Source: Escherichia coli O157 typing phage 15. Taken from it: a stretch of DNA of 64,000 nucleotides. The number at the start of each line of letters is the position of its first letter. Within the stretch, counting starts at the first letter, position 1. This document shows positions 4,180-51,653 of the stretch, one piece after another. A program made the translations under genes and the position numbers. The DNA lies in sequence record KP869113; one strand, 5' to 3'. Under the pieces are notes generated by a model, which was not told where the DNA came from, searched no databases, and saw only the letters and a list, made by a program, of their open reading frames with translations.

Positions 4180-6795
4180 TTAAGCAGTTCTTACCCAAGC
4201 CATTAACTTATAGAACTGGTTAGTAACACTAAATGCAGAACCAGAACCAGTACCACCTGTGTTACCGCTAACTGTGTGGCTGTGAGCACCAATATCAACA
4301 GTGTGGCTGTGGTTACCTGTTGTATTCGTTACACCAGACCAGTTTCTTGATGCGTTGAAGTTGACAGGGATACCATTAGTAAAGTTGTTACCAGTATACC
4401 CTTTAGAACCTGCCTGACTACCGAGGTAGAATGCACCACTTGCTGTGTAGAAGCTACTAGCGTCACTTCTGAAGTAACCAAATGAACCAGTAATCTCCAT
4501 AGTACCTCTGTTGTGGTTGTGGTTACCAGTTGTGCTAGAAGTCTTAGTACCATAGTCAAATGATGAAGTAGTAGCAGAGAAGCTGTGCGTGTGTGAAGGT
4601 AAGTTACCAACAGACAACGTTACAGAGTCTGAACCACCAGTTGTAGCAACATCTGAACCGTTTGCTGCTGCAATTCTAATAGTTCTACCAACACCATTAT
4701 TCAGGTACGTCCAAGTTAACCCAGGAAGTGCTGTGTTTGGGTTGACATTACTGTTAAACCACGTCACAATACCTACTGGATAGATTTTATTCAGGTCTGT
4801 AGAGTCACTAATTGCTTCTGCAATCTTCTGGTCAGTCTCTGCTTTAGTGTATGCACCAATATCTGAAGGGGTTGGTTTTTGCAAACTTGTGTAGTATTTT
4901 GCAATTGTACCCTTCACAATACCTTGTGGAGCATCATCAAATGTCTGTGGGACTTCAAACAACTGTACACTTGCATTACTAGAAGACTGAACCCTTGTCG
5001 TTGTGCTGTTTTGATACGTACCAGCAAGATAGTAAATATCATAGGTGTCTCCAGAAGTATTCACATAACCAATATCCCTGACAATGGTGTTCTCTGATGT
5101 TCTCCAAGCAACAACATTTAAGCCCTTTGGATTGTTATTTGAAGTTCGCAGAACAATTTCACATTTACCTGCTTGGTTTGGTGTATTAATATTAAAACCT
5201 GACCCACCAAATACCTCAATAACAGCAGTGGATGCTGATTGTGGCATCACAACAGTGGCAATTTTAGCCCACTTATCAGTGTTTCCCACATTGAAGCTAG
5301 TGCTTCTGATTCTTAGGTATCTACTATCACTAGCACTTTGCGTAAAGTATCTAGCATCTAAGTTAGAGAAATCTGAAGGTTGAACTTGTCCAGCAATAGT
5401 CAATGTTTTGTTAATGTATGATGTTGTATTCCCGAGAACCAATTGGGTTCCAGAATAACTGTTATTTAGGGTAACATCATTCGTGTCAGCACCACCAACA
5501 CCAATCCACCATCTTGATACATTAGTAGTGTCCACACCACGAATATATAATGGTCTATTCTGAGTAGAGTTTTTAACAATCAGACCTTCATTATCCGTAA
5601 CAACTGTCTGTACACCATTAAAAGTATTCCTTGCATTAGTTCTTGCAATCGTACTTAATGTTGCTACCGGAATATATCTAGAGTCAATGTTAGCCCAATC
5701 TGAAGGTTGGACTTGTCCAGTGATTTGCACAGTTTTATTGATACCAATAGTAGTACCTAGTGAAACCTGTGAACCTGTAAGGTAGTTATAAATGTTTAGA
5801 CGTGTCTCGTCAGAATCTGTACCAACATACCATTTATTTGTTCCATCAGACTTCTTACCGAGAATGTAAAGTGCTGTATTTGCATCAGTATTCTGCAAAG
5901 TAATGGCATTAGCATTCTTCTTAGCAACAAGGTTAGTGAAAGTGTTAGCACCTGTAAAAGTATTATTGCCAGCTAACTGTGCAAATCTCTGATTAGCTGC
6001 CGTCTGAGTAAAGTATCTAGCATCTAAGTTAGAGAAATCAGAAGGCTGAACTTGACCAGTGATTGCTAAAGACTTATTAACAGAGATATTACTTGCAACA
6101 GTCAAGACTGAGTTGTATTTGCTATTGTACAGCTTTACTTCGTCAGAGCCATTACTACCAATACCAACCCACCATCTAGCCGAACCATCTAGGTTTACAC
6201 CTTCAATATATTGTGCATTATTTGCATTTTGGTTTCTAAGGCGAAGTAAGTTAGCATCACCTTGAATGTTCTGAGTCCCAGAGAATGTGTTTGTGATAGC
6301 AAGTCTTGCATATCTTGCGTCATTCTCTTCATTAGTTCTCATACCAAGCTCATTAGGACTTGGCTTATTCAGAGTATGATAAACAGTTGCTGACCTTGAA
6401 GCATCTGCAATAGTTAGTTTAAGACCACTTGCGTTAAGTTTAAAAGTCTTTAAAACATCCCCAATAGTAATCTCAGAAGAACCTGTAGGGTCAAATACTG
6501 CCTTACCACCGTAAAGTAACTTGACAATACCTAAATCCCCCGTCATAGTGCTTCCAGCAATCTGAACAAACCTTTCTAGTTTGAAGGAAGCTAAGAAGTC
6601 TTGATAGGTCATTCTACGGTCTTCGTCACCCAACATTTCAGGTCTTTTCTTAACTCTGATGTGCAATAGGTCTTCTGAACGAATTGTGTCGATTGAGTTT
6701 AACTGACTCAATTTGTAATCTGCCATTATGAATTTTCCTCTTAAAAGGGGCTTTATAGCCCCTGTAAAGAAATTAAGCTGTTCTCTGCCACACAT
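4180..6795 (-). CDS. Long tail fibre protein (871 aa) with internal repeats and HxH tip
   Basis: Three about 100-aa repeats (NKxLxITGQVQPSDFSNLDARYFTQ); C-terminal HTHS/HSHT motifs (GNHSHTVDIGAHSHTV); C-terminus shared with the 6773..7948 protein. Confidence 0.7.
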   Translation of the reverse strand: MCGREQLNFFTGAIKPLLRGKFIMADYKLSQLNSIDTIRSEDLLHIRVKKRPEMLGDEDRRMTYQDFLASFKLERFVQIAGSTMTGDLGIVKLLYGGKAVFDPTGSSEITIGDVLKTFKLNASGLKLTIADASRSATVYHTLNKPSPNELGMRTNEENDARYARLAITNTFSGTQNIQGDANLLRLRNQNANNAQYIEGVNLDGSARWWVGIGSNGSDEVKLYNSKYNSVLTVASNISVNKSLAITGQVQPSDFSNLDARYFTQTAANQRFAQLAGNNTFTGANTFTNLVAKKNANAITLQNTDANTALYILGKKSDGTNKWYVGTDSDETRLNIYNYLTGSQVSLGTTIGINKTVQITGQVQPSDWANIDSRYIPVATLSTIARTNARNTFNGVQTVVTDNEGLIVKNSTQNRPLYIRGVDTTNVSRWWIGVGGADTNDVTLNNSYSGTQLVLGNTTSYINKTLTIAGQVQPSDFSNLDARYFTQSASDSRYLRIRSTSFNVGNTDKWAKIATVVMPQSASTAVIEVFGGSGFNINTPNQAGKCEIVLRTSNNNPKGLNVVAWRTSENTIVRDIGYVNTSGDTYDIYYLAGTYQNSTTTRVQSSSNASVQLFEVPQTFDDAPQGIVKGTIAKYYTSLQKPTPSDIGAYTKAETDQKIAEAISDSTDLNKIYPVGIVTWFNSNVNPNTALPGLTWTYLNNGVGRTIRIAAANGSDVATTGGSDSVTLSVGNLPSHTHSFSATTSSFDYGTKTSSTTGNHNHNRGTMEITGSFGYFRSDASSFYTASGAFYLGSQAGSKGYTGNNFTNGIPVNFNASRNWSGVTNTTGNHSHTVDIGAHSHTVSGNTGGTGSGSAFSVTNQFYKLMAWVRTA

Positions 6796-43699: not shown

Positions 43700-43965
43700 T
43701 TATCGGTTGTTCCAACCTCTGGGTCACCATCATATGTGAATAAAATATCTATCCTTCTTAACAACCTTCTTAATCTTACTCTCTATATATAGTTATATAG
43801 TACTATATAGTGTCTTAGTAACTATCTAGTGGTCTTAATAGCCCCTCTGTATAACCCTTCTAAATAGCCCTCTAAACACTCTTCTAACAAGCCTTCTTAA
43901 CAACCTATACAATCACCTTAACCATCTCTCTATACGCTCTTAGAAGCCTCTATACACCTCACCCC
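43700..43965. repeat. Pyrimidine-rich CTTAACAA-type repeat region; 43881-43957 identical to 898-974
   Basis: Same word family as 898-2733; 77-bp exact match. Confidence 0.6.
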
Positions 43966-44164
43966 AATAATGGTAGTGAGATTCCTCGTTTATGGCTTCT
44001 TTTACGGCATCTTTCCAGAAGTCATCAGTAGGGTTATAATCTGGTATCACCTGCTGAATCAGCATTTTGATAAGGTCAAAGGTATTATCTGTTCCACCGA
44101 TATCGAATTTTGCATCAAGTTGGTGGCAGCCATAAGCATTAACAGTTACGCGGATAGTTGACAT
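43940..44164 (-). CDS. Small early protein (74 aa)
   Basis: ORF immediately downstream of a promoter/hairpin/RBS cassette. Confidence 0.45.
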   Translation of the reverse strand: MSTIRVTVNAYGCHQLDAKFDIGGTDNTFDLIKMLIQQVIPDYNPTDDFWKDAVKEAINEESHYHYWGEVYRGF

Positions 44165-44230
44165 AATTTAGAATCTCCAGTTTAGGACTTTATTTAGTGG
44201 GGAAGGTCATTCCCTCCCCGTTGTTTAGTA
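44165..44230 (-). promoter_or_regulatory. Early-gene leader cassette, family 1
   Basis: Coding-strand consensus CAACGGGGAGGGAATGACCTTCCCCACTAA(G/A)TAAAGTCCTTAAACT(A/G)GAGATTC then ATG. Confidence 0.55.
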
Positions 44231-44232
44231 AT

Positions 44233-44496
44233 TTACTGCATATTGGCGTAGGTTGCAAGCCTTTTTTCGTTGTATTTTGTCAGAATTTCACAAGATAGAA
44301 CATCGTACATTGTAACCGCTTTGCTTTTGTCGAGGTCAAAAAAGCCAAATGCTTTACCATCTTTGAATCCGACAACTTCGTAAGATTCTTTAATGATTTC
44401 ACCATTGAACAAATCACTTTCGATACGGTGAAACAACGCTACGTCTTCTTTGTCAGTTGCAATCTGCAATAGTGTGGTTAATTCTACGTGTTCCAT
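44233..44496 (-). CDS. Small early protein (about 87 aa)
   Basis: Track ORF 44233..44601 trimmed to the ATG at 44496 that directly follows the cassette RBS. Confidence 0.45.
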   Translation of the reverse strand: MEHVELTTLLQIATDKEDVALFHRIESDLFNGEIIKESYEVVGFKDGKAFGFFDLDKSKAVTMYDVLSCEILTKYNEKRLATYANMQ

Positions 44497-44570
44497 TTTT
44501 GAATCTCCTAGTTTAAGGACTTTACTTAGTGGGAAGGTTAATCCCTCCCCGTTGATTGACAATTTACAGA
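44497..44570 (-). promoter_or_regulatory. Early-gene leader cassette, family 1
   Basis: Same consensus; upstream minus strand reads TTGACG-17 nt-TAAATT. Confidence 0.55.
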
Positions 44571-45094
44571 CTTTTGATTGTCTCGTCAATATCTTTTTCA
44601 ATATCTTTTAAAGTTTTTTCTAAGTTCTTGATATTGAAGGATAAGCCTTCACCGAGAGTCTTAGAATAACTGCTAGGACGTAAATCATAAAGGCCAATTT
44701 GTTCTACATTGGAGAGGTTGACCATTTCACCGCTTACATCATAAGCTATTGATACGGTGTTTTCAGGGGCTTTATAGAACTTGTTAAGATTCTTGATAGA
44801 ACGTTCATAAGCCATTTTATAACCATTTAAAAGGTCTTTAACGTGGTTGCGAACGTTTTTACACTCATCTAAGTAAATACCTAAGAATAGCGGTAACAGT
44901 TCTGCTACAGCTTGCATAAAGTGAGATACTACAACAGTAGAAACATTACGACGATGTATATAATAAGCCCCGTTTTCTGATTTAGTGATAGTTGCAAAGT
45001 GTACACCGTTGCAACGAAATTCGAAGGTATCTTTAACGGGTTTAGTCATAACGTTAGATGAGCGAATGTAGTTGATAGCTTGAAACTTGTTCAT
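44564..45094 (-). CDS. Hypothetical early protein (176 aa)
   Basis: ORF following cassette. Confidence 0.45.
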   Translation of the reverse strand: MNKFQAINYIRSSNVMTKPVKDTFEFRCNGVHFATITKSENGAYYIHRRNVSTVVVSHFMQAVAELLPLFLGIYLDECKNVRNHVKDLLNGYKMAYERSIKNLNKFYKAPENTVSIAYDVSGEMVNLSNVEQIGLYDLRPSSYSKTLGEGLSFNIKNLEKTLKDIEKDIDETIKSL

Positions 45095-45165
45095 TTTGAA
45101 TCTCCTAGTTTAAGGACTTTACTTAGTGGGGAAGGTCATTCCCTCCCCGTTGATTAGTACTATAC
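45095..45165 (-). promoter_or_regulatory. Early-gene leader cassette, family 1
   Basis: Same consensus; minus strand reads TTGCAA..TATAGT upstream of hairpin. Confidence 0.55.
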
Positions 45166-45315
45166 TTGTTTTGATTTGCCTTTGCAAGCAATTTTTTAAG
45201 TTTATCTATAAAGAATCTATTAAGTGAATCCCTTTTAGATAACCCCCTCGAACAAAGTTACCAATGTCAATGGGTATTGTCAACACTTTTTTAAAAGTTT
45301 TTTGTAAGTTATTGA

Positions 45316-45657
45316 TTAACTTATGAAGATTTTTTCAGGCTTTACATAGCTGATACGCTGACTTTTTAGCAGGTCATCCCAGATTAAAGCGGCAATATGT
45401 GCATAACCGGATTCACGTAAAAGCTTCATTGTTTTACTTCTCGTTTCAAAACGGCTTGCGTAGTATTCACTGTTCAAGGTCGTTTTATTCCCTTCGTTAT
45501 CTGTATGGATGATTTGCATCACTTGAAAGGGGCTTACACCCTCGCCTTTGTTCCACTGTTCAAAGTATTTTAGGCACTGCATAGGTGACATCTTATCACT
45601 TACTTGAGTTGACCAAGATGAGCCAGCTTTATCGGTAATTACGGTTACATAAGCCAT
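45316..45657 (-). CDS. Hypothetical early protein (113 aa)
   Basis: ORF following family-2 cassette. Confidence 0.45.
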   Translation of the reverse strand: MAYVTVITDKAGSSWSTQVSDKMSPMQCLKYFEQWNKGEGVSPFQVMQIIHTDNEGNKTTLNSEYYASRFETRSKTMKLLRESGYAHIAALIWDDLLKSQRISYVKPEKIFIS

Positions 45658-45742
45658 TTTAGAATCTCCAGTTTAGGATTGAGTGGTAAAGCTCTTTATC
45701 TGGGGCTTACTATACAGACTAATAAGCCCCATGTAAAGTACT
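45658..45742 (-). promoter_or_regulatory. Early-gene leader cassette, family 2
   Basis: Coding-strand palindrome GGGGCTTA-N13-TAAGCCCC, then AGATAAAGAGCTTTACCACTCAATCCTAAACTGGAGATTC and ATG. Confidence 0.55.
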
Positions 45743-45991
45743 TTAAGCGTCTTTATATTCTATCTCTGTGCACTCACCTTTTACTAGCTCAAAGGTCCAA
45801 ATAATTCGTTTATACTCAATCACTACTACAGTAACAAGGTCAGTCCTCTTCTCATTGGTTTTAAAGTCTATTGTGTGGGTATACTCATAACTAGTCTTAT
45901 CCTTAATTTCCCCGTAGCGTCTACACTCTTTATAGACTTCATCCATTAAGCCATTGCTAACCATGTTTTTTAGTTGAGTTTTAGTATACAT
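45743..45991 (-). CDS. Small early protein (82 aa)
   Basis: ORF following cassette. Confidence 0.45.
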   Translation of the reverse strand: MYTKTQLKNMVSNGLMDEVYKECRRYGEIKDKTSYEYTHTIDFKTNEKRTDLVTVVVIEYKRIIWTFELVKGECTEIEYKDA

Positions 45992-46084
45992 TTTTTGGAA
46001 TCTCCTAGTTTAAGGACTTTACTTAGTGGGGAAGGTCATTCCCTCCCCGTTGATTGATAATTTACAGACTTTTATCAGGCTTGT
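45992..46084 (-). promoter_or_regulatory. Early-gene leader cassette, family 1
   Basis: Consensus plus upstream TAGACA..TAAATT promoter-like hexamers. Confidence 0.55.
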
Positions 46085-46318
46085 CTAGTCTTTTTCAATG
46101 ATAATTTCATATTGACCATCGACACTGTCGAAATAGATTCCTTCGTCATCTTCTGTCTTAAAGTAACATTGTATATCATCACTGGCGGGGTAGTCTTGTC
46201 TTGCTATCTGGCAAACTTGAATAGCATTTTCTTTACTTCCTGTAAACTCTTCAAGCCCTTTAAAGTCACATGAATGGCCGTTACAAATGGAAAGGATGAG
46301 ATAAATGGTTGTAAGCAT
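46085..46318 (-). CDS. Small secreted protein (77 aa)
   Basis: N-terminal signal-like hydrophobic segment MLTTIYLILSICNG; several Cys. Confidence 0.4.
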   Translation of the reverse strand: MLTTIYLILSICNGHSCDFKGLEEFTGSKENAIQVCQIARQDYPASDDIQCYFKTEDDEGIYFDSVDGQYEIIIEKD

Positions 46319-46324
46319 GATTTA

Positions 46325-46370
46325 AGCCCTCTAAAAGCCCCTGTAAGGGGTTAATCAGTGTTTATAAGGT
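46325..46370 (-). terminator. Hairpin terminator after gene 46385..46927
   Basis: Minus-strand CCCCTTACAGGGG followed by CTTTTAG. Confidence 0.4.
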
Positions 46371-46384
46371 GAATGTATAGGTTT

Positions 46385-46927
46385 TTAGAAAAAGACCTTT
46401 AAATCACTCTCTACAATGTTTTCTGTCAGTGTATCCATGATGTCACAAAAAACCTGAATACTGTCGGATTGTTGGATACTTTTAGCAAGTAGCTCCAATG
46501 TTTCATCAAGATAATTTAAATTTGGGTTATCCAGTGAAGGGAGACAAAAAGGTGAATACATAGCGTTGAACTCTGTTGTATAGACCTTTTTAATCCAATT
46601 TACATCAAAGTACTCTGTAAAGCTTGCTATATTTGACATGTTATCACAAGAATAATCATCATTTAGCTCATCCTCTGGAATGTCAAGTTCTAAGATAACA
46701 ATATTTTGAGTTTTCATCTGAAAAGCTGCCGTGATAGTGGCATTTCCTAGAGCTTGCTGGATACCTTCCGATGCTATCTCTTCCTCATCATCACCATAGA
46801 GTTTATTTTCTGGGTACACGTAAAAATTGCCGTCCATATCCGAACAATTCCATACACCTGATGGTTTATCACCGTTATTAATCAGGTTGATAAAGTTTTC
46901 TTGAGTAGTACCGTGAAAGCATTTCAT
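46385..46927 (-). CDS. Hypothetical protein (180 aa) with N-terminal HGT motif (speculative ADP-ribosyltransferase or 2'-phosphotransferase-like)
   Basis: MKCFHGTT at N-terminus, aromatic-rich segment NFYVYPENKLYG, acidic central region; motif-level resemblance only. Confidence 0.4.
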   Translation of the reverse strand: MKCFHGTTQENFINLINNGDKPSGVWNCSDMDGNFYVYPENKLYGDDEEEIASEGIQQALGNATITAAFQMKTQNIVILELDIPEDELNDDYSCDNMSNIASFTEYFDVNWIKKVYTTEFNAMYSPFCLPSLDNPNLNYLDETLELLAKSIQQSDSIQVFCDIMDTLTENIVESDLKVFF

Positions 46928-47020
46928 TTTGAATCTCCTAGTTTAAGGATTTAGTGGTAAAGCTCTTTATCTGGGGCTTACTTTATCGAACTATAAGCCC
47001 CTTGTAAAGTACTTTATCAG
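46928..47020 (-). promoter_or_regulatory. Early-gene leader cassette, family 2
   Basis: GGGGCTTA..TAAGCCCC palindrome plus conserved RBS segment. Confidence 0.55.
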
Positions 47021-47218
47021 TTAATTTTTGACAACTTTTAAAACTGCAAGATAACCTAAGCAATAAGAATCACCGAAGAGAGTTCTACCCATGAAAGAAT
47101 CATCTTTGATATCCTTTGCAGTGACTGTTTTTTCTACGCCGTGGGAAAGAACTACATCACCAACTTTAATGTCTTTGATGTGCGTGGTTTCAATGGTTAA
47201 ACCGTTGATAATAGCCAT
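47021..47218 (-). CDS. Small early protein (65 aa)
   Basis: ORF following cassette. Confidence 0.4.
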   Translation of the reverse strand: MAIINGLTIETTHIKDIKVGDVVLSHGVEKTVTAKDIKDDSFMGRTLFGDSYCLGYLAVLKVVKN

Positions 47219-47319
47219 TTTGAATCTCCTAGTTTAAGGACTTTACTTAGTGGGGAAGGTCATTCCCTCCCCGTTGATGTGTAATTTAATCTATCTAAAA
47301 ATCAGTGTCAATAAAATTT
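47219..47319 (-). promoter_or_regulatory. Early-gene leader cassette, family 1
   Basis: Consensus hairpin plus RBS. Confidence 0.55.
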
Positions 47320-47724
47320 TTAGAGTTCTGCATAAATTGCGTCGCAGATGTCACGAAAGTCATGATTTGCCAAATTACGTTGTAACCAAGTGGCAAAGAA
47401 ATCAGCGATTGCAAAATTAGCATCATACTCAACAGATAGCCACACTTTCACGGCAAATCTAAACATTTTCAAGTCTAACTCTTTATTCATTACCTTAGAT
47501 TTGCCTAACATGTCGACCATTTCATATTGTGCACCGTCTAGCGTGATACCTGCTGCAACGTCAGCCAATGAGTTTTTTACGTTTTCAACGTCTAAGATAA
47601 CGCTTTGAATCTTTCCGATAATGTTGTGCAATGTTTCATCCGGTGCTGATGATGTAATAACATTGATTCGATTAACGGTTAAACGTGCTTTTAAGATTGA
47701 CAACTCACGATTATTAATAGCCAT
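47320..47724 (-). CDS. Hypothetical early protein (134 aa)
   Basis: ORF following cassette. Confidence 0.45.
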   Translation of the reverse strand: MAINNRELSILKARLTVNRINVITSSAPDETLHNIIGKIQSVILDVENVKNSLADVAAGITLDGAQYEMVDMLGKSKVMNKELDLKMFRFAVKVWLSVEYDANFAIADFFATWLQRNLANHDFRDICDAIYAEL

Positions 47725-47809
47725 TTTAGAATCTCCAATTTAGGATTGAGTGGTAAAGCTCTTTATCTGGGGCTTACTGTACAGACTAATAAGCCCCCTG
47801 TAAAGTACT
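47725..47809 (-). promoter_or_regulatory. Early-gene leader cassette, family 2
   Basis: Palindrome GGGGCTTA..TAAGCCCC; TTTACA-17 nt-TACAGT overlaps the palindrome. Confidence 0.55.
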
Positions 47810-48082
47810 TTATACTAAATGCAGTTTTTTACCTTTTACTATGATGTAACTTGATGTGCTATTGCTACATACATCCTGATAAATTCTGCGCAAACGTCCT
47901 TCATAGTATACTTTCCAGCTAGTTGGAATCTTTTTGCCGTATCCGGTAGCAGTTTTTTGGAGTCCTGCGACTTGCCAATCTAAGATATGTTGCTCAGCCT
48001 GTAAATCCTCAAAGTGCATCACACCGTCTACATAGTGACGTAGAGTGACATTTAAAGTGCGACCGTTGTTAGTAGTATACAT
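47810..48082 (-). CDS. Small early protein (90 aa)
   Basis: ORF following cassette. Confidence 0.45.
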   Translation of the reverse strand: MYTTNNGRTLNVTLRHYVDGVMHFEDLQAEQHILDWQVAGLQKTATGYGKKIPTSWKVYYEGRLRRIYQDVCSNSTSSYIIVKGKKLHLV

Positions 48083-48171
48083 TTTAGAATCTCCTAGTTT
48101 AAGGACTTTATTTAGTGGGGTGTTTATTGCCTCCCCGTTGATGTGTAATTTAATCTATCTAAAAATCAGTG
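48083..48171 (-). promoter_or_regulatory. Early-gene leader cassette, family 1 variant
   Basis: Variant hairpin GGGGAGGCAATAAACACCCC with conserved RBS segment. Confidence 0.5.
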
Positions 48172-48504
48172 TCAACAGTTTTGTTTTCGTTTGCTCAACT
48201 CTTGAACAATTACAGTATGATAGTCTTTTAAGTCACTAATATTTAAAGCATTTATCAGAGAATTATAATCATCGACTAATTGAAAATCATCTTTGAAAAT
48301 GTCGCTGATTTGATAAGTTCTCGCCCTGAATCTGAAGCTCATTTCTAACCGCTTTAATTGTTCATCGCTCAACCGCTCTAGAAAGCTCATTACAAGGCTA
48401 TTGCTAACCTGTTGTGTGATTGCCTTATTTGCTAGATTATAGGCTTTATATGCCTTATAGAGCGCGAAAATGGCAATGATTGCAGTGATACCAGTCATTA
48501 ACAT
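48172..48504 (-). CDS. Small membrane-anchored protein (110 aa)
   Basis: N-terminal hydrophobic helix MLMTGITAIIAIFALYKAY. Confidence 0.4.
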   Translation of the reverse strand: MLMTGITAIIAIFALYKAYKAYNLANKAITQQVSNSLVMSFLERLSDEQLKRLEMSFRFRARTYQISDIFKDDFQLVDDYNSLINALNISDLKDYHTVIVQELSKRKQNC

Positions 48505-48794
48505 GGTGCTTCCTCTTTACGTGATACTTTGCCATTTACAGTTATCTCATAAGAATCTAGTAAATCGCTTTTAGATTTGACAGGACTTTTAAGAGTATCA
48601 TCATAGATATTAACTTGCAATACAGGTTTTTTATACTCCCTGCAACTATTCCATAAGCAAATCACTACACGACGACCTTTTATTTTGCCGTGTAACCATT
48701 CCATAACATCATGGCTATTTCTTGATGTTTCAATGAAATCAATTTTGTTGAGTAATTTGCTTAGATTTTCACGAACTTTATTTGATAATTTCAT
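48498..48794 (-). CDS. Hypothetical early protein (98 aa)
   Basis: ORF following cassette. Confidence 0.45.
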   Translation of the reverse strand: MKLSNKVRENLSKLLNKIDFIETSRNSHDVMEWLHGKIKGRRVVICLWNSCREYKKPVLQVNIYDDTLKSPVKSKSDLLDSYEITVNGKVSRKEEAPC

Positions 48795-48882
48795 TTTTGA
48801 ATCTCCAGTTTAGGATTGAGTGGTAAAGCTCTTTATCTGGGGCTTAAGATACCAACTTTTAAGCCCCTTGTAAAGTACTTTA
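48795..48882 (-). promoter_or_regulatory. Early-gene leader cassette, family 2
   Basis: Palindrome plus RBS segment. Confidence 0.55.
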
Positions 48883-49173
48883 TCAGTTAATTTTCAGCTT
48901 TGCATAACCTCTCATTGTACGAATTGGAGATGTTAAGGCTACGCGTCTAATATATGCCTTTTTCGTGTATACATTTGTCTTTCCGATAGTGTTTACACAT
49001 GTAAAAAGATTTATTGGTGAATTTTTTAACTTCAACTGTTTATCAGCCTTCACACCCCATCTTACAGCAGATTGTTTTCCGTTGTCAACCACTTTCCCGC
49101 CTAACTTTTTCGCCATGATGCGAGCGTCATCACGAGTTTTTACAGGAATTACAACGTTTTTGATAGTAGCCAT
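48883..49173 (-). CDS. Small basic protein (96 aa)
   Basis: ORF following cassette. Confidence 0.45.
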   Translation of the reverse strand: MATIKNVVIPVKTRDDARIMAKKLGGKVVDNGKQSAVRWGVKADKQLKLKNSPINLFTCVNTIGKTNVYTKKAYIRRVALTSPIRTMRGYAKLKIN

Positions 49174-49261
49174 TTTTGAATCTCCAATTTAGGATTTAGT
49201 GGTAAAGCTCTTTATCTGGGGCTTACTTTATCGAACTATAAGCCCCTTGTAAAGTACTTTA
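49174..49261 (-). promoter_or_regulatory. Early-gene leader cassette, family 2
   Basis: Palindrome plus RBS segment. Confidence 0.55.
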
Positions 49262-49642
49262 TCAGTTAATTTTGAAGATTGTTACATAACCATCACTACC
49301 GATTATTTGAGACACTCCAGCTTTTTCTACTTGATAGCCCATATTTTCAAGATGATAAACAGCATCATCGTAACCATATGCGCCACCCTGATAACGTCTC
49401 TTATCGCATCTTATCAGGTTTTTACCACGTCCAGCAAGTGCATGTAAAATGGCTTTTTCACTTGAAAGAGTACCATCTAGCATTGTCGCCGTGTAATGGT
49501 TAATTTTATTCCCATTGATATCATACTTAAAATTAAACGAGTGAACAACAATAACGTTACCTTTAAAATTCTCATCAAGTGACTTCTCCAGTGCGTTGCG
49601 AAAGTTGTCTTTGTTGATGAATTTAGGTGCACGATATGCCAT
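49262..49642 (-). CDS. Hypothetical early protein (126 aa)
   Basis: ORF following cassette. Confidence 0.45.
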   Translation of the reverse strand: MAYRAPKFINKDNFRNALEKSLDENFKGNVIVVHSFNFKYDINGNKINHYTATMLDGTLSSEKAILHALAGRGKNLIRCDKRRYQGGAYGYDDAVYHLENMGYQVEKAGVSQIIGSDGYVTIFKIN

Positions 49643-49733
49643 TTTTGAATCTCCTAGTTTAAGGGTTGATTTGGTAAAGCTCTTTATCTGGGGCTTAAGA
49701 TATCAGCTTTTAAGCCCCTTGTAAAGTACTTTA
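49643..49733 (-). promoter_or_regulatory. Early-gene leader cassette, family 2
   Basis: Palindrome plus RBS segment. Confidence 0.55.
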
Positions 49734-49940
49734 TTAGGCATCGTAGTAATAAACTGCTGTCTGTCTTATGTACTTTCTTGTATTTCTTGTAAGGTAGCAA
49801 TTAGAGTTTATAGCTGTTTCTACATAGTTGCAATAGTCAGCCTCTGATATTCTAGACCATGCGCCACATACTTGCATGTAAAAACGTTTTACCTTTGTGT
49901 TAACGTTAGTTGTAACCATCAATTCACGACTATAAAGCAT
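49734..49940 (-). CDS. Small early protein (68 aa)
   Basis: First ORF of the small-gene array, preceded by a cassette-like RBS segment. Confidence 0.4.
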   Translation of the reverse strand: MLYSRELMVTTNVNTKVKRFYMQVCGAWSRISEADYCNYVETAINSNCYLTRNTRKYIRQTAVYYYDA

Positions 49941-50138
49941 TTTCGATTCTCCAGTTTAGGAAGTGGGCTTGCTTGCCCGTCTGATGCAAATAGTACGTAA
50001 ACTTGTTTGGCGTGTCAACGGTTTTTATTAAATATTTTTTGTAAGGTTGGGAAATGAACGGGCGCGCACGACTACCACAAAACAGAACACAAATCAAGAA
50101 TTATTTTTCAACCCGCTACAAATTTTTCTCTTGACTTT

Positions 50139-50175
50139 TGGGGAGAGGTGGAGTAAGAGGGGGAGAGGGGTTGGT
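50139..50175. other. Purine (G)-rich tract GGGGAGAGGTGGAGTAAGAGGGGGAGAGGGGTTGG
   Basis: Conspicuous G-run cluster in an otherwise AT-rich non-coding region. Confidence 0.6.
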
Positions 50176-50194
50176 CTGGCTCTCTATAAAAACC

Positions 50195-50385
50195 TACCTG
50201 CACGATTCTAAAATGATTTTTCTTGCCCGACCTGAGCGGGGTCTGCACGTTTTGAAAATGAAAAAGCTCTTTGGAGATTACCTGCACAGTTTGAAAATGA
50301 ATTTTCTCTTTGGAGTTCAAAATTCTCTCTACAGATTTCTCTACAGAACTCTACCTGCACAATCCTGAAATGAAAAAGCCCTCCT
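50195..50385. repeat. Four direct iteron-like repeats (C)CTGCAC-N2-(T/C)-N3-TGAAA(A)TGA(A/T)
   Basis: Copies at about 50195, 50243, 50280 and 50354 inside a 500-bp non-coding region. Confidence 0.55.
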
Positions 50386-50446
50386 TACCTGAAAAATTTA
50401 CCAGATAAAGAAGGCTTAGTCTATTGTGAATATTATACAGAGTTTC

Positions 50447-51232
50447 TTAGTTCTTTGCGTCTAAGAAGGTAACTTCTGGTGAAGAGAAGACCGTCTCGAT
50501 ATCCTCATCAGTTCTTGCATAAATATATGTATCTGCATCACTGCCAAATGTTACGGCTATCCTGTGATTGCTCTTCGACAGGTGGGTAACTAGAGCGTTA
50601 CTTAGAGACATCTTCTCAACCGGAGGGTTACTTTGATGTATCTTACCTTTTCTTCGTCTGAAGAGGGTAACTGTATCATCTTTGAACGTTACTACACCTG
50701 CAAAGTATTCTGGTTCACAGTAGTTATTCCAACCTGAGCGTAACTTGTGGTACATCTCTCCTTCGTAGACATACAGATAAACATCTACACTCTTCATCAC
50801 CTGATTAATGATAACTGTGACGGCTTGAGGGTCAAGTCCACCGATACCTGCACCAATCATAGGTAAACCAACCTTCTTCAACTGATTAACTTCACAGTAT
50901 CTGTTAAGCTGTTTCAAAGATGACTCTAAAGCACTGTATCGGGCATCTTTACCAGTCTTAAGCTGAGTGTAAAGGTTAGCTATACGACCTTGTTTTAAAC
51001 GTGCTACAGAGAAATTACCCAGTAAATTTTCACAGGGTTTGTGTCCTATACCACCTGCATACAGATAAACTTCTGTATCGGTCTCATATGCTTTTGGGTA
51101 AAGTTTAGAAATCTTGTCAGCGATACCTGCACCCATTAAATTCATACAGTTGCAACCGTGACCGATGATGTCAAACTTACCTTTATCAAATGCGGCAAAG
51201 ATATCACCATTAATTATTTTTACAATACCCAT
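50447..51232 (-). CDS. Macro-domain protein (TARG1/OARD1-like ADP-ribose-processing family), 261 aa
   Basis: N-terminal NGDIF...IIGHGCNCMNLMGAGIA and internal GLPMIGAGIGGL resemble the GDLF...HCIS.D..MGAGIA and P.IGCGLD motifs of TARG1-type macrodomains (from memory). Confidence 0.55.
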   Translation of the reverse strand: MGIVKIINGDIFAAFDKGKFDIIGHGCNCMNLMGAGIADKISKLYPKAYETDTEVYLYAGGIGHKPCENLLGNFSVARLKQGRIANLYTQLKTGKDARYSALESSLKQLNRYCEVNQLKKVGLPMIGAGIGGLDPQAVTVIINQVMKSVDVYLYVYEGEMYHKLRSGWNNYCEPEYFAGVVTFKDDTVTLFRRRKGKIHQSNPPVEKMSLSNALVTHLSKSNHRIAVTFGSDADTYIYARTDEDIETVFSSPEVTFLDAKN

Positions 51233-51433
51233 TTAACATCTCTCCCAAGATTCTTTGTCTTCTGAAGGTTTTACACGTTGTCCTTCGTGGTCTACCCAGA
51301 TGCACCCACAACCTTCACAGATTACTGGCATTGCATAACCAGCTTTAAAGTCATCTTCAGTGATAAGACCTTTTAAGTCACCTGTATCACGTCCGAACAT
51401 TTCGATAGAACAGTCTTTGCAGAAGTCAGCCAT
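51233..51433 (-). CDS. Small zinc-ribbon protein (about 66 aa)
   Basis: CxxC...CxGC motifs (CKDC, CEGCGC); track ORF trimmed to an internal ATG to avoid overlap. Confidence 0.4.
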   Translation of the reverse strand: MADFCKDCSIEMFGRDTGDLKGLITEDDFKAGYAMPVICEGCGCIWVDHEGQRVKPSEDKESWERC

Positions 51434-51653
51434 TGATAATTGCCTCTTGAATGATGATACCTTTACCACAACGGCTTTTAAAATCTTCCAACGGTTGGGA
51501 GATGAAGCCACGCAAGCAATCACTAAACACTAAGTTTTTCCTGTAGGCTATCACATCGTTTGCTGTAAACGGGATGACTTCATTTCTTCCAATGAATACT
51601 GCTGACCGGATGAGTTTCCGTGTCTTTTTATCTCTGGCTAGAATTACTCTCAT
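51426..51653 (-). CDS. Hypothetical protein (75 aa)
   Basis: Track ORF. Confidence 0.35.
   Translation of the reverse strand: MRVILARDKKTRKLIRSAVFIGRNEVIPFTANDVIAYRKNLVFSDCLRGFISQPLEDFKSRCGKGIIIQEAIING

Follow-up and report, generated by a model that had tools for sequence, protein, structure and literature searches.

A conserved array of four direct repeats in a gene-free early-region stretch of Felix O1-like phages, a possible origin or early control region

At the border between two early transcription units of the phage DNA analysed here lies a gene-free stretch, 49941-50446, which carries four direct repeats and which, judged from its sequence, appears to be functional. The window (the whole stretch of DNA analysed, 64,000 nucleotides) matches Escherichia typing phage 1 (TP1; Felixounavirus), a Felix O1-like phage, Felix O1 and its relatives being classical typing and biocontrol phages. 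Because the repeats are deeply conserved, there is good support for the view that they are under selection, whether acting in cis or as RNA, and the array would appear to be the best conserved non-coding feature of the early region in Felix O1 and its relatives. Tentatively, the stretch may be a conserved cis-acting DNA control region, in which an iteron-like, protein-binding array marks an origin or an early control region; a + strand RNA would account for the data about as well as an origin does. The Felix O1 genome paper describes temporal regulation as not understood and leaves the repeat array unmentioned, and a literature search on Felix O1-like phages found no paper describing the repeats, an origin or a transcriptome.

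The repeats and their setting

The four repeats lie exactly where an earlier note on this DNA had located them: its pattern, at two mismatches or fewer, matches four times in the 64 kb against 0.61 expected, and four or more matches arose in 0 of 100 shuffles. While the positions given in that note hold, the unit is longer than it described, consisting of a conserved core of ~22 bp plus an A/T tract (conserved span 18-22 bp) within units of 39-73 bp (Table 1). On the gene (-) strand the motif reads TCATTTY-N6-GTGCA, equivalent to TGCAC-N6-RAAATGA on the + strand, with all four copies in the same orientation. The refined core TCATTTYNNNNNNGTGCAKR has four exact matches on the - strand, and no further site at one mismatch or fewer was found in the 64 kb together with 25 kb more of the reference genome (~88 kb). 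Pairwise identity among the four repeats is only 65-82%, and the A/T tract beside TCATTTT is either A5 or T5, depending on the copy. As the earlier note had held, the stretch is non-coding: it is free of genes in the reference annotation, and no conserved ORF was found in it. The neighbouring genes all lie on the - strand, and among the proteins of the ten flanking genes, all function-unassigned, no DNA-binding, initiator-like or Rep-like family was found.

Table 1. Features in and around the gene-free stretch (positions in the window)
Feature	Position	Strand	Details
Small gene bordering the gene-free stretch	49734-49940	-	Reference annotation
Sigma-70-type promoter serving the downstream small early-gene array	49990-50018	-	TTGACA-17-TACTAT; scan 10/12
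Most conserved spacer block, AT-rich	50088-50139		Inverted repeat TCAAGA-N29-TCTTGA, ...AATCAAGAATTATTTTTCAAcCCGCTACAAATTTTTCTcTTGACTTTT; near-invariant columns
Candidate promoter facing the repeats	50131-50159	+	TTGACT (50131-50136), 17 nt, TAAGAG (50154-50159); read from sequence
G-rich purine tract	50140-50174	+	GGGGAGAGGTGGAGTAAGAGGGGGAGAGGGGTTGG; 23 G, 0 C in 35 nt
Repeat 1	50197-50216	-	TCATTTTAGAATCGTGCAGG; exact core match; + strand CTGCAC-N-RAAATGA copy 50198-50216
Repeat 2	50242-50261	-	TCATTTTCAAAACGTGCAGA; exact core match; + strand copy 50243-50261
Repeat 3	50281-50300	-	TCATTTTCAAACTGTGCAGG; exact core match, preceded by ACTCCAAAGAG and an A/T tract; + strand copy 50282-50300
Short sequence TCTCTACAGA in two direct copies	50326-50335 and 50338-50347	+	Within the long gap separating repeat 3 from repeat 4; conservation across the aligned genomes is partial
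Repeat 4	50354-50373	-	TCATTTCAGGATTGTGCAGG; exact core match; + strand copy 50355-50373
Intrinsic terminator hairpin, end of the rIIA...macro-domain operon	50376-50417	-	17 pairs, then TTTCATTTCA
Macro-domain 'phosphatase' gene	50447-51232	-	Reference annotation

Two promoters stand back to back in the stretch. That on the - strand is conserved as TTGAC...TA.TATTTGCATCA. The candidate on the + strand has an invariant TTGACT -35 hexamer (AAAAGTCAA in the alignment) and scores 8/12; in TP1 its -10 hexamer has no key final T, and the consensus scan did not call it. In 'type B' relatives this -10 reads TGGTAGCCT, resembling an extended -10, and in Kolesnikvirus a sigma-70 promoter (TTGACG-18-TATACT, 10/12) faces the repeats. 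In the AT-rich block, 0.77 of the columns are identical in 8/8 genomes; its AT content of ~70% against ~61% for the genome is not striking, nor is that of 50001-50040 at 72-75%. The T-tract of the terminator hairpin extends into repeat 4. The hairpin is annotated as a terminator in AYO145A, and its stem persists, built from different sequences, in Mooglevirus and Suspvirus; on the + strand, where its U-tract is weak, it would close a transcript running through the repeats.

The striking purine run singled out by the earlier note proved to exceed every other 35-nt segment of the 64 kb, on either strand, in G content, the runner-up count for either base being 16. It lies upstream of the repeats, as had been said, in + strand terms, but not for the neighbouring genes with their - strand orientation. 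Most close relatives carry GGGGAGAGGGGGAGTAAGAGGGGGAGAGGGG at this tract, a canonical G-quadruplex pattern, and a pattern scan found no canonical G4 in the 64-kb sequence's own tract. In about half of the Felixounavirus variants the tract is replaced by an unrelated module that is G-rich on the other strand, and in Mooglevirus, Suspvirus and Kolesnikvirus the corresponding tract is C-rich on the - strand.

Conservation across related phages

Immediately past the macro-domain gene, the array is present in Felixounavirus, Mooglevirus, Suspvirus and Kolesnikvirus, and in two unclassified contigs of 85-88 kb. The earlier note had regarded a lack of conservation in related genomes as telling against its reading; in fact, copy number, order, orientation and position are kept across at least four genera while the flanks diverge, being ~73% identical between genera or unalignable, and the cores are as well conserved as the adjoining coding DNA. 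Start-to-start spacings are 45/39/73 bp in Felixounavirus, 45/41/75 bp in Mooglevirus and Suspvirus and 37/37/39 bp in Kolesnikvirus, so that across these four genera the spacing is neither constant nor helically phased. Within repeat 4, TCATTT and GTGCAGG are invariant in the 11 genomes aligned, and repeat 1 with its flank GGTCGGGCAAGAAAAATCATTTT is still recognisable in the Erwinia phage Ea_Tu10. Repeat 3 is deleted in some phages, the three-copy variants being BPSELC-1, finno and others.

Reading the array as iteron-like DNA

The proposed model is that the four repeats serve as same-orientation iterons for one sequence-specific factor, probably phage-encoded, which would read a two-part site made up of the A/T-tract with TCATTTT and then GTGCA one helical turn off. 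DNA-shape readout would fit an A5 or T5 tract next to TCATTTT better than would single-stranded RNA recognition. The most likely task of such an array would be the assembly of a nucleoprotein complex that leads to the start of DNA replication, and transcription from the adjacent promoter may assist the replisome by opening or priming the DNA; the repeats would thereby be presumed to bind protein, with replication initiation rather than pure transcription control as the presumed outcome. The replisome of the phage is T7-like, with a primase-helicase (Toprim plus DnaB_C) and a DNA polymerase both annotated in the record, although the primase-helicase has Toprim and DnaB_C only and no origin-binding domain. 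T7-like replisomes start at promoter-linked origins, and gene-free early regions with several direct repeats have the classical look of a phage origin (lambda ori, T4 oriE, lactococcal phage ori/per). Where an origin reading looks for at least three direct repeats of about 17-22 bp in the same orientation at one locus, four cores spanning 18-22 bp were found, beside a genome-unique, structure-prone G/C tract, a conserved AT-rich block and back-to-back promoters. The locus resembles iteron origins (lambda ori with four O-protein sites by an AT-rich tract, plasmid theta origins, T4 oriE) in having four same-orientation direct repeats of ~20 bp, unique in the genome, in a gene-free stretch next to a strand-asymmetric purine tract and an AT-rich block that is conserved. 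It differs from them in that its spacing is 37-75 bp and unphased, against about 22 bp for iterons, and in its asymmetric two-part site; further, no initiator gene is recognised, and there are neither DnaA/IHF sites nor a skew signal.

These differences bear on the earlier note, which had suggested either an origin of replication or a regulatory region with several sites: that the element is under selection, acting in cis or as RNA, stands, while the origin finds no support in skew, DnaA/IHF sites, initiator or phasing. GC skew, which that note had put forward as a check, has no inflection at the array; its global minimum falls at the primase-helicase / DNA polymerase divergence, near 63 kb of the record, and skew in this genome follows gene strand. 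A site scan found no enrichment of DnaA and IHF sites at the array. Also against an origin are the modest AT content of the AT-rich block and the swapping of the G-rich tract among Felixounavirus variants. Some origins need no repeats, as at the T7 primary origin, the R-loop origins T4 oriF/oriG and mitochondrial LSP-CSBII. With these transcription-primed systems the phage locus shares a T7-like replisome, a promoter leading into a G-rich tract (with the canonical G-quadruplex pattern in most type A relatives) and a position at an early-unit border, but its G-rich strand is not conserved (type B having it on the other strand) and the TP1 promoter is weak by consensus. Among host-factor sites considered for the motif, those of Fis, CRP, Fur, LexA and CsrA (GGA) gave no fit by eye, nor did Type I restriction sites such as that of EcoKI; a relaxed DnaA box is similar to the Kolesnikvirus copies (TGTGCATAG) and not to those of Felixounavirus. 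If the array is an origin, engineering and origin-titration resistance could both make use of it.

RNA, regulatory and other explanations

As the main alternative, possible though somewhat doubtful, the same stretch may give rise to a + strand non-coding RNA of ~250 nt, which would begin at the TTGACT promoter and end with the shared hairpin, and whose four UGCAC-N6-RAAAUGA modules would be bound or cleaved by an RNA-binding protein or endoribonuclease. The layout of promoter, repeats and hairpin agrees with such a transcript, as do the invariant -35 and UP-like block that face the repeats, the stronger promoter of Kolesnikvirus in that direction and the retention of the hairpin by compensatory sequence; however, the candidate promoter of TP1, with its weak -10, escaped the scan. 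In its sharpest form this RNA would be a type III antitoxin-like decoy that titrates an abortive-infection RNase of the ToxN family, as with the pseudo-ToxI of PhiTE. ToxN-family enzymes cleave at AA^AU (ToxN of Pectobacterium), and AAAU is present in the + sense in every copy of every genus examined, as a putative cleavage site. Units of 37-45 nt in four copies fall within the type III range, although one unit measures 73 nt, and a place in the early region suits an anti-defence role. A phage RNA that mimics ToxI is documented (PMC3475682), and ToxI arrays and the PhiTE pseudo-ToxI (PMC3475682, PMC5086642) likewise comprise a promoter, 2-5.5 direct repeats of 34-45 nt, a hairpin and one A-rich AAAU site per unit. 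In contrast to these arrays, the phage units are of unequal length, show no recognisable pseudoknot, are followed by no toxin gene, and are universal in the subfamily rather than sporadic; they are also only 65-82% alike, against 88-99% in true ToxI arrays. When the phage two-part motif was used as a search pattern over a 596-Gb genome set, two toxIN loci of Lachnospiraceae (L052, L059) were retrieved, in which a ToxN gene (Pfam E = 5e-47 and 5e-50) is immediately preceded by ToxI repeats of 37 nt that share the 11-nt motif, UGCAC-N7-AAAUGA, with the same spacing and sense. However, past the 11 nt set by the search pattern the similarity is at chance level, and the chance of such a match is estimated at ~5%; apart from this one toxIN family, the matches of the genome and metagenome motif scan were mostly unrelated tandem repeats (21-bp arrays, coding repeats). 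Enterobacterial ToxI units have in common UGC-N5-8-GAAAU and a CUACC element, yet a profile of seven of them (nhmmer) found no match in the phage region in either sense. An RNA fold signal is absent (z = -0.33 and +0.46), a result that is weak for pseudoknots since the folding tools do not model them; the consensus fold of the alignment of relatives has an energy of -8.5 kcal/mol, to which covariation contributes 0, and by inspection UGCAC has no pseudoknot partner and the units have no interleaved helices in common. As for described structured RNAs, an Rfam search of 49000-51500 at E<=10 gave two sub-threshold chance matches, none inside 49941-50446, and Rfam evidently holds no ToxI model, because genuine toxI, too, goes undetected by it. 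No toxin gene lies downstream, where the + strand is antisense of the macro-domain gene; a ToxN homologue was found in none of the Ounavirinae records, and blastn against plasmids and 5,426 E. coli genomes returned nothing similar. The motif is moreover invariant in phages of Escherichia, Salmonella, Citrobacter, Shigella and Erwinia, a better fit to a constant partner than to the sporadic and variable toxIN. It is improbable that all Ounavirinae carry a constitutive early non-coding RNA whose four UGCAC-N6-AAAUGA modules act as decoys or antitoxin mimics for a ToxN-type or another conserved RNase. Were it so, such a decoy would be the first natural, fixed antitoxin-like RNA mimicry across a whole phage subfamily, and its anti-defence effect a fixed subfamily-wide trait as against the laboratory escape in PhiTE.

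A rather unlikely explanation within DNA-based control is that the repeats form an operator or enhancer array through which a phage early protein or host factor switches, insulates or shuts off the back-to-back promoters, or blocks rIIA-macro read-through. In favour of this, the array has a strong terminator on one side and divergent promoters on the other, where two early units meet; the promoter-proximal block is conserved along with the repeats, and one or more HTH_3 regulators are encoded by the phage. In type A, the C-rich tract of the - strand RNA resembles a Rho-loading site, as would suit an insulator. However, the repeats stand 180-350 bp away from the - strand promoter, whose first gene is genus-specific where the repeats are constant, and HTH_3 dimers usually read palindromes rather than asymmetric direct repeats. 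By inspection the motif fits no sigma-70, sigma-54 or extended -10 layout, nor a MotA-box-like promoter, as its invariant bases would fall in spacers, and it is missing from all other promoters of the genome and is therefore no general signal for early, middle or late transcription. It is very improbable that the array is instead a genome-end signal, namely a pause in DNA ejection, as proposed for the T5 first-step-transfer boundary, or a packaging aid. In a relative whose ends have been mapped, the array lies ~7.5% from the right terminus with only small early genes beyond, and in contig L030 the repeats adjoin a TTAACA-rich tract resembling that of the terminal region. The T5 boundary, or 'injection stop signal', is likewise a gene-free, repeat-rich stretch ~8% from the end with small early 'takeover' genes between, but T5 has a terminal repeat of 10 kb against ~0.6 kb in Felix O1-like phages, in which stepwise entry or ejection of DNA is not known. 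Packaging signals of terminal-repeat phages, moreover, lie at the ends and not 6 kb inside. The distance from array to end also changes with the mosaic gene array, and the terminal-repeat-like sequence of the 64 kb is at 898-2733, away from the array. Terminal repeats of 608 bp are experimentally supported in UAB_Phi87 (PMC4837284), and Pr103Blw, deposited with 581-bp terminal repeats (PMC8303462), has its macro gene at 80693-81478, the spacer at 81479-81999, the small-gene array at 82000-87383 and the right repeat at 87841-88421. Four contigs of one metagenome stop 300-415 nt past the macro gene, for which assembly breaks at a conserved/variable border are a better explanation than a terminus.

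Two further possibilities have next to no probability. The repeats may be functionless leftovers of a tandem duplication of the 3' half of the terminator, given that the first half of repeat 4 is at the same time the T-tract (GGGCTTTTTCATTTCAGG) of the real terminator, and that repeats 2 and 3 hold degenerate copies of its stem arm (AAAAAGCTCTTTGGAG vs AAAAAGCCCTCCTTACC). However, four invariant cores persist across genera amid diverged flanks, where neutral DNA would have decayed, and this conservation disfavours the leftover reading; terminator duplication may account for the origin of the repeats, not for their retention. No more probable is a small protein, or more than one, encoded on the + strand, where an ORF at 50138-50368 (76 aa with a TTG start, 51 aa with an ATG start) crosses repeats 1-3 in frame, the 45- and 39-nt spacings holding three ATGs in that frame. 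ORFs are annotated at the array in Mordin, Sf13, JLBYU28, Meda and Pr103Blw, but they vary in strand, frame and length, and no frame is open across genera. The frame is not kept, as follows from the spacings of 37/37/39 in Kolesnikvirus and 41 in Mooglevirus; the ATGs have no preceding Shine-Dalgarno, and block replacement turns PERGLHV into PDFSLHV. The finding flags such spurious ORF annotations at the array in many public records.

Anatomy and gene setting of the spacer

A 1-kb query around the spacer at 49941-50446 matches 224 phage records, among them Escherichia typing phage 1 (Felixounavirus TP1, NC_041979.1) at 100% identity and Salmonella phage Felix O1 at 94%. The spacer extends over 506 bp without an annotated gene in the reference, and all flanking genes lie on the - strand: transcriptionally upstream, an operon that includes rIIA, rIIB and polynucleotide kinase and ends with the macro-domain 'phosphatase' gene (50447-51232; the macro gene), and downstream an array of small genes of unassigned function, the first at 49734-49940. 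The earlier note had described four repeat copies and a striking G-rich purine tract here, and both are borne out. The repeat pattern given in the note has 4 matches against 0.61 expected (0 of 100 shuffles reach 4). The gene-strand core, TCATTTY-N6-GTGCA(G/T)(G/A), follows a stretch of A or T four to five bases long; it has four exact matches, and across the window plus a further 25 kb of reference genome no other site lies within one mismatch. The 35-nt tract at 50140-50174 contains 23 G and lacks C altogether, the highest G content among all 35-nt windows on either strand of the 64 kb. Spacers of the small early genes (44150-49740) contain repeated modules of 60-115 bp with mutual identity of 82-98%, presumably promoter and terminator cassettes, in line with reports of 57-bp and 39-bp repeats in Felix O1.

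Parts of the spacer in gene (- strand) direction, from the macro gene stop codon onward; repeats are numbered by rising + strand position
Feature	Coordinates	Strand	Remarks
Terminator hairpin	50417-50376	-	17 pairs; its T-tract forms the first half of repeat 4
Repeat 4			directly after the terminator hairpin
73-bp unit			between repeats 4 and 3; contains two TCTCTACAGA copies
Repeats 3, 2, 1			in that order after the 73-bp unit
C-rich tract			after repeat 1; G-rich on the + strand
AT-rich block			after the C-rich tract; nearly invariant; TTGACT inside, on the + strand
GC-rich stretch			between the AT-rich block and the sigma-70-type promoter
Sigma-70-type promoter	50018-49990	-	TTGACA-17-TACTAT; then ribosome-binding site and first small gene

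Conservation among relatives

A spacer length of ~505 bp and much of the sequence are kept in Felixounavirus, Suspvirus (phiSUSP1) and Mooglevirus (Mordin, Sf13), and in an 11-genome alignment neither TCATTT nor GTGCAG varies in any of the four copies. Hardly anything else in Erwinia phage Ea_Tu10 (Kolesnikvirus) can be aligned, yet the architecture is retained: macro gene, terminator, four copies of TTTTTCATTTT-N6-GTGCATAG spaced at 37, 37 and 39 bp, then a C-rich tract. Two unclassified contigs of 85-88 kb (L030, L193) carry five copies each, directly after a shorter macro-domain gene. When IMG/VR was scanned for two adjacent motif copies, the matches were almost exclusively contigs of Ounavirinae (Felix O1-like phage) size with fixed spacings of 73/39/45, 75/41/45 or 37/37/39; three-copy arrays occurred in a few. 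In a comparison of eight genomes from three genera, all share the same base at 70-87% of repeat-window columns, which at least equals the conservation of the macro gene, and the downstream gene array is mosaic. The earlier note had named lack of conservation in relatives as what would undo its reading; the repeats are clearly conserved across genera, and that refutation therefore fails. The repeat element is under selection.

The macro-domain gene is invariably the immediate upstream neighbor of the repeats (50447-51232 here, 1170-1616 in L030); its product is 261 aa long in Felixounavirus, where it has an additional C-terminal half, and 148 aa in L030, and this ADP-ribose-binding protein may be functionally linked to the repeats. 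Four long Felixounavirus contigs of metagenome 3300045988 (L174, L175, L177, L181) stop inside the spacer, 300-415 nt past the macro gene, likely as assembly breaks between the conserved region and the variable module plus gene array in mixed strains.

Candidate functions of the repeat array

The repeats would act at the DNA level, as a putative array of binding sites, a reading that accounts for their uniqueness, fixed orientation and universal retention, for a two-part core with halves about one helical turn apart, and for the A5/T5 interchange beside it. The neighborhood is origin-like: divergent promoters and a conserved AT-rich block accompany a structure-prone G/C tract found nowhere else in the genome. 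The phage has a T7-like replisome, and such replisomes start at promoter-linked origins. On these grounds an iteron-like origin or control region ranks first, as a tentative reading; a purely transcriptional operator array seems unlikely. The origin-or-regulatory-region proposal of the earlier note stands in so far as the element is conserved and under selection, but its origin half gains nothing from GC skew, which has no inflection at the locus, or from DnaA and IHF sites, which lack enrichment at the spacer. Cumulative GC skew reaches its global minimum near the divergence of the primase-helicase and DNA polymerase genes and tracks gene strand throughout the genome. Outside this array the genome lacks the motif, and a general promoter class was rejected.

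Coding is a minor alternative: a + strand ORF (50138-50368) crosses repeats 1-3 in frame, but frame, strand and length vary between genera and the frame is lost at spacings of 37 or 41 bp, and the reading was rejected. 'Hypothetical protein' ORFs placed within the spacer in public records have mutually inconsistent strands and frames (L003 1722-1910, L007 1722-2000, L002 2612-3009, L011 1701-1883, L014 5715-5873) and are probably artefacts of stop-free repeats. A structured RNA was likewise rejected, as folding is no better than in shuffles on either strand (z = -0.33, +0.46); the consensus fold has no covariation except in the terminator, and Rfam has no match within 49941-50446, while 49000-51500 holds two sub-threshold chance hits, both in flanking genes.

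The main rival, that the spacer yields a + strand RNA, possibly an antitoxin-like decoy, is somewhat doubtful. Its layout would be a -35 facing the repeats, the repeats, and a closing hairpin. At its end, the best-conserved portion of the spacer reads CTACAAATTTTTCT(C/G)TTGACTTTT, which combines an A/T-rich stretch with a perfect-class -35 hexamer directed at the repeats. From there to repeat 1, over ~60 bp, close relatives carry one of two unrelated versions. In type A this is the G-rich tract, which in most relatives has the sequence GGGGAGAGGGGGAGTAAGAGGGGGAGAGGGG, matching a canonical G-quadruplex pattern, and TAAGAG lies 17 nt past the -35; type B has at the same distance TGGTAGCCT, which resembles an extended -10. 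Kolesnikvirus has a 10/12 consensus promoter (TTGACG-18-TATACT) facing the repeats from ~140 bp off. The hairpin would end a + strand transcript, but the U-tract on that side is poor. A promoter scan of Kolesnikvirus returned 3 promoter-like sites against 2.5 expected, the TP1 + strand candidate was not called, and + strand promoter matches alone are not statistically compelling. The swap is a clean one within a conserved spacer and covers 50137-50196 (columns ~265-320 of alignment A1), between invariant TTGACTTTT and repeat 1; type B carries GGTGGGTGCAGGTGGGG on the opposite strand, in contrast to G-rich type A, and one relative (L122) has an additional GGGGGAGTAAGA unit.

The likeness to type III antitoxins in unit length (37-45 nt), copy number and promoter-repeats-hairpin layout prompted a scan of 596 Gb of bacterial genomes for TCATTT-N7-GTGCA in two adjacent copies. 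Unrelated tandem repeats make up most of the 42 hits, but two Lachnospiraceae contigs (L052, L059) have 37-nt repeat arrays with promoter, terminator and then a gene for the toxin ToxN (Pfam PF13958, E = 5e-47 and 5e-50). The two-part motif lies there in the same sense, in the antitoxin RNA repeats (ToxI) upstream of ToxN, the antitoxin sense matching the window + strand (UGCACAGCCCUAAAAUGA vs UGCACAGUUUGAAAAUGA), and a phage RNA mimicking ToxI is documented in PhiTE (PMC3475682). Against this, the match beyond the 11 nt fixed by the search pattern is at chance level, with a roughly estimated 5% chance of such a hit, and a profile built from seven enterobacterial ToxI units gives no match in the phage region. 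Enterobacterial toxIN plasmids have ToxI units of AGGUGA..GCUACC..AAGUGC-N5-7-GAAAU, with which the phage units share only UGC-N-GAAAAU and UACC just before UGCAC (3/4 phage copies). The phage units are only 65-82% alike and of unequal lengths, and in them a pseudoknot, one of the defining features of type III antitoxins, was not found; nor was a ToxN homologue in Ounavirinae, or similar sequence in plasmids, E. coli genomes or metagenomes. Invariance of the motif in phages of five host genera favors a constant partner over sporadic toxIN variants, and the type III antitoxin version of the RNA reading is quite improbable. The element fits neither family, departing from iteron origins in spacing and initiator and from type III antitoxins in unit identity and pseudoknot. 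The Felix O1 genome paper gives other direct repeats but not these four and states temporal control as not known, and the literature searched holds no description of an origin, transcript map or repeat element for Ounavirinae.

The Lachnospiraceae MAG contigs carry complete toxIN loci (L052 7040-7260, -; L059 480-670, +) with about two 37-nt ToxI repeats, whose unit, AGGUGAUGCACAGCCYUWAAAUGAGCGAGU..., departs from the enterobacterial consensus. Tandem 21-bp units of TCATTT-N7-GTGCA-N3 in Bacteroidota, Clostridia, Ignavibacteria and Chloroflexi MAGs (L055, L064, L072, L085, L088, L112, L136 and others), some at contig ends and others encoding repeats of 7 residues in long ORFs, probably have no connection with the phage element. 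The same core motif also occurs in a small viral contig of 10,229 bp (L022 / L130) that is otherwise unrelated: two 50-bp tandem units at ~6254-6321, each with AATCATTTTAACATAGTGCAG, precede a TATAAT-type promoter and gene by ~40-90 bp, a match that may reflect either chance or a shared binding factor.

Position relative to genome ends

Felixounaviruses have short direct terminal repeats, of 581 bp in Pr103Blw (PhageTerm; PMC8303462) and 608 bp in UAB_Phi87 (Bal31; PMC4837284). The Pr103Blw spacer occupies the interval 6.4-6.9 kb from the right end, and past it comes only the small-gene array; this distance may differ in the window phage. Here the homologue of the 581-bp repeat and its flanks lies at 898-2733, beside tRNA genes; in Pr103Blw (L013, L014 comparison) the terminal region separates the small-gene array from the next gene block, whereas in the window both blocks abut at 43959/43960, and the distance from element to end is therefore uncertain. 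The difference reflects either a paralogous region, a rearrangement or an assembly effect. End-linked functions, like junk, are minor alternatives. The region at 898-2733 holds dozens of CTTGTTAAGA-like short repeats. Throughout the 64-kb window GATC is absent, against ~200 expected by a rough estimate from base composition, a complete avoidance of Dam / MboI-type sites.
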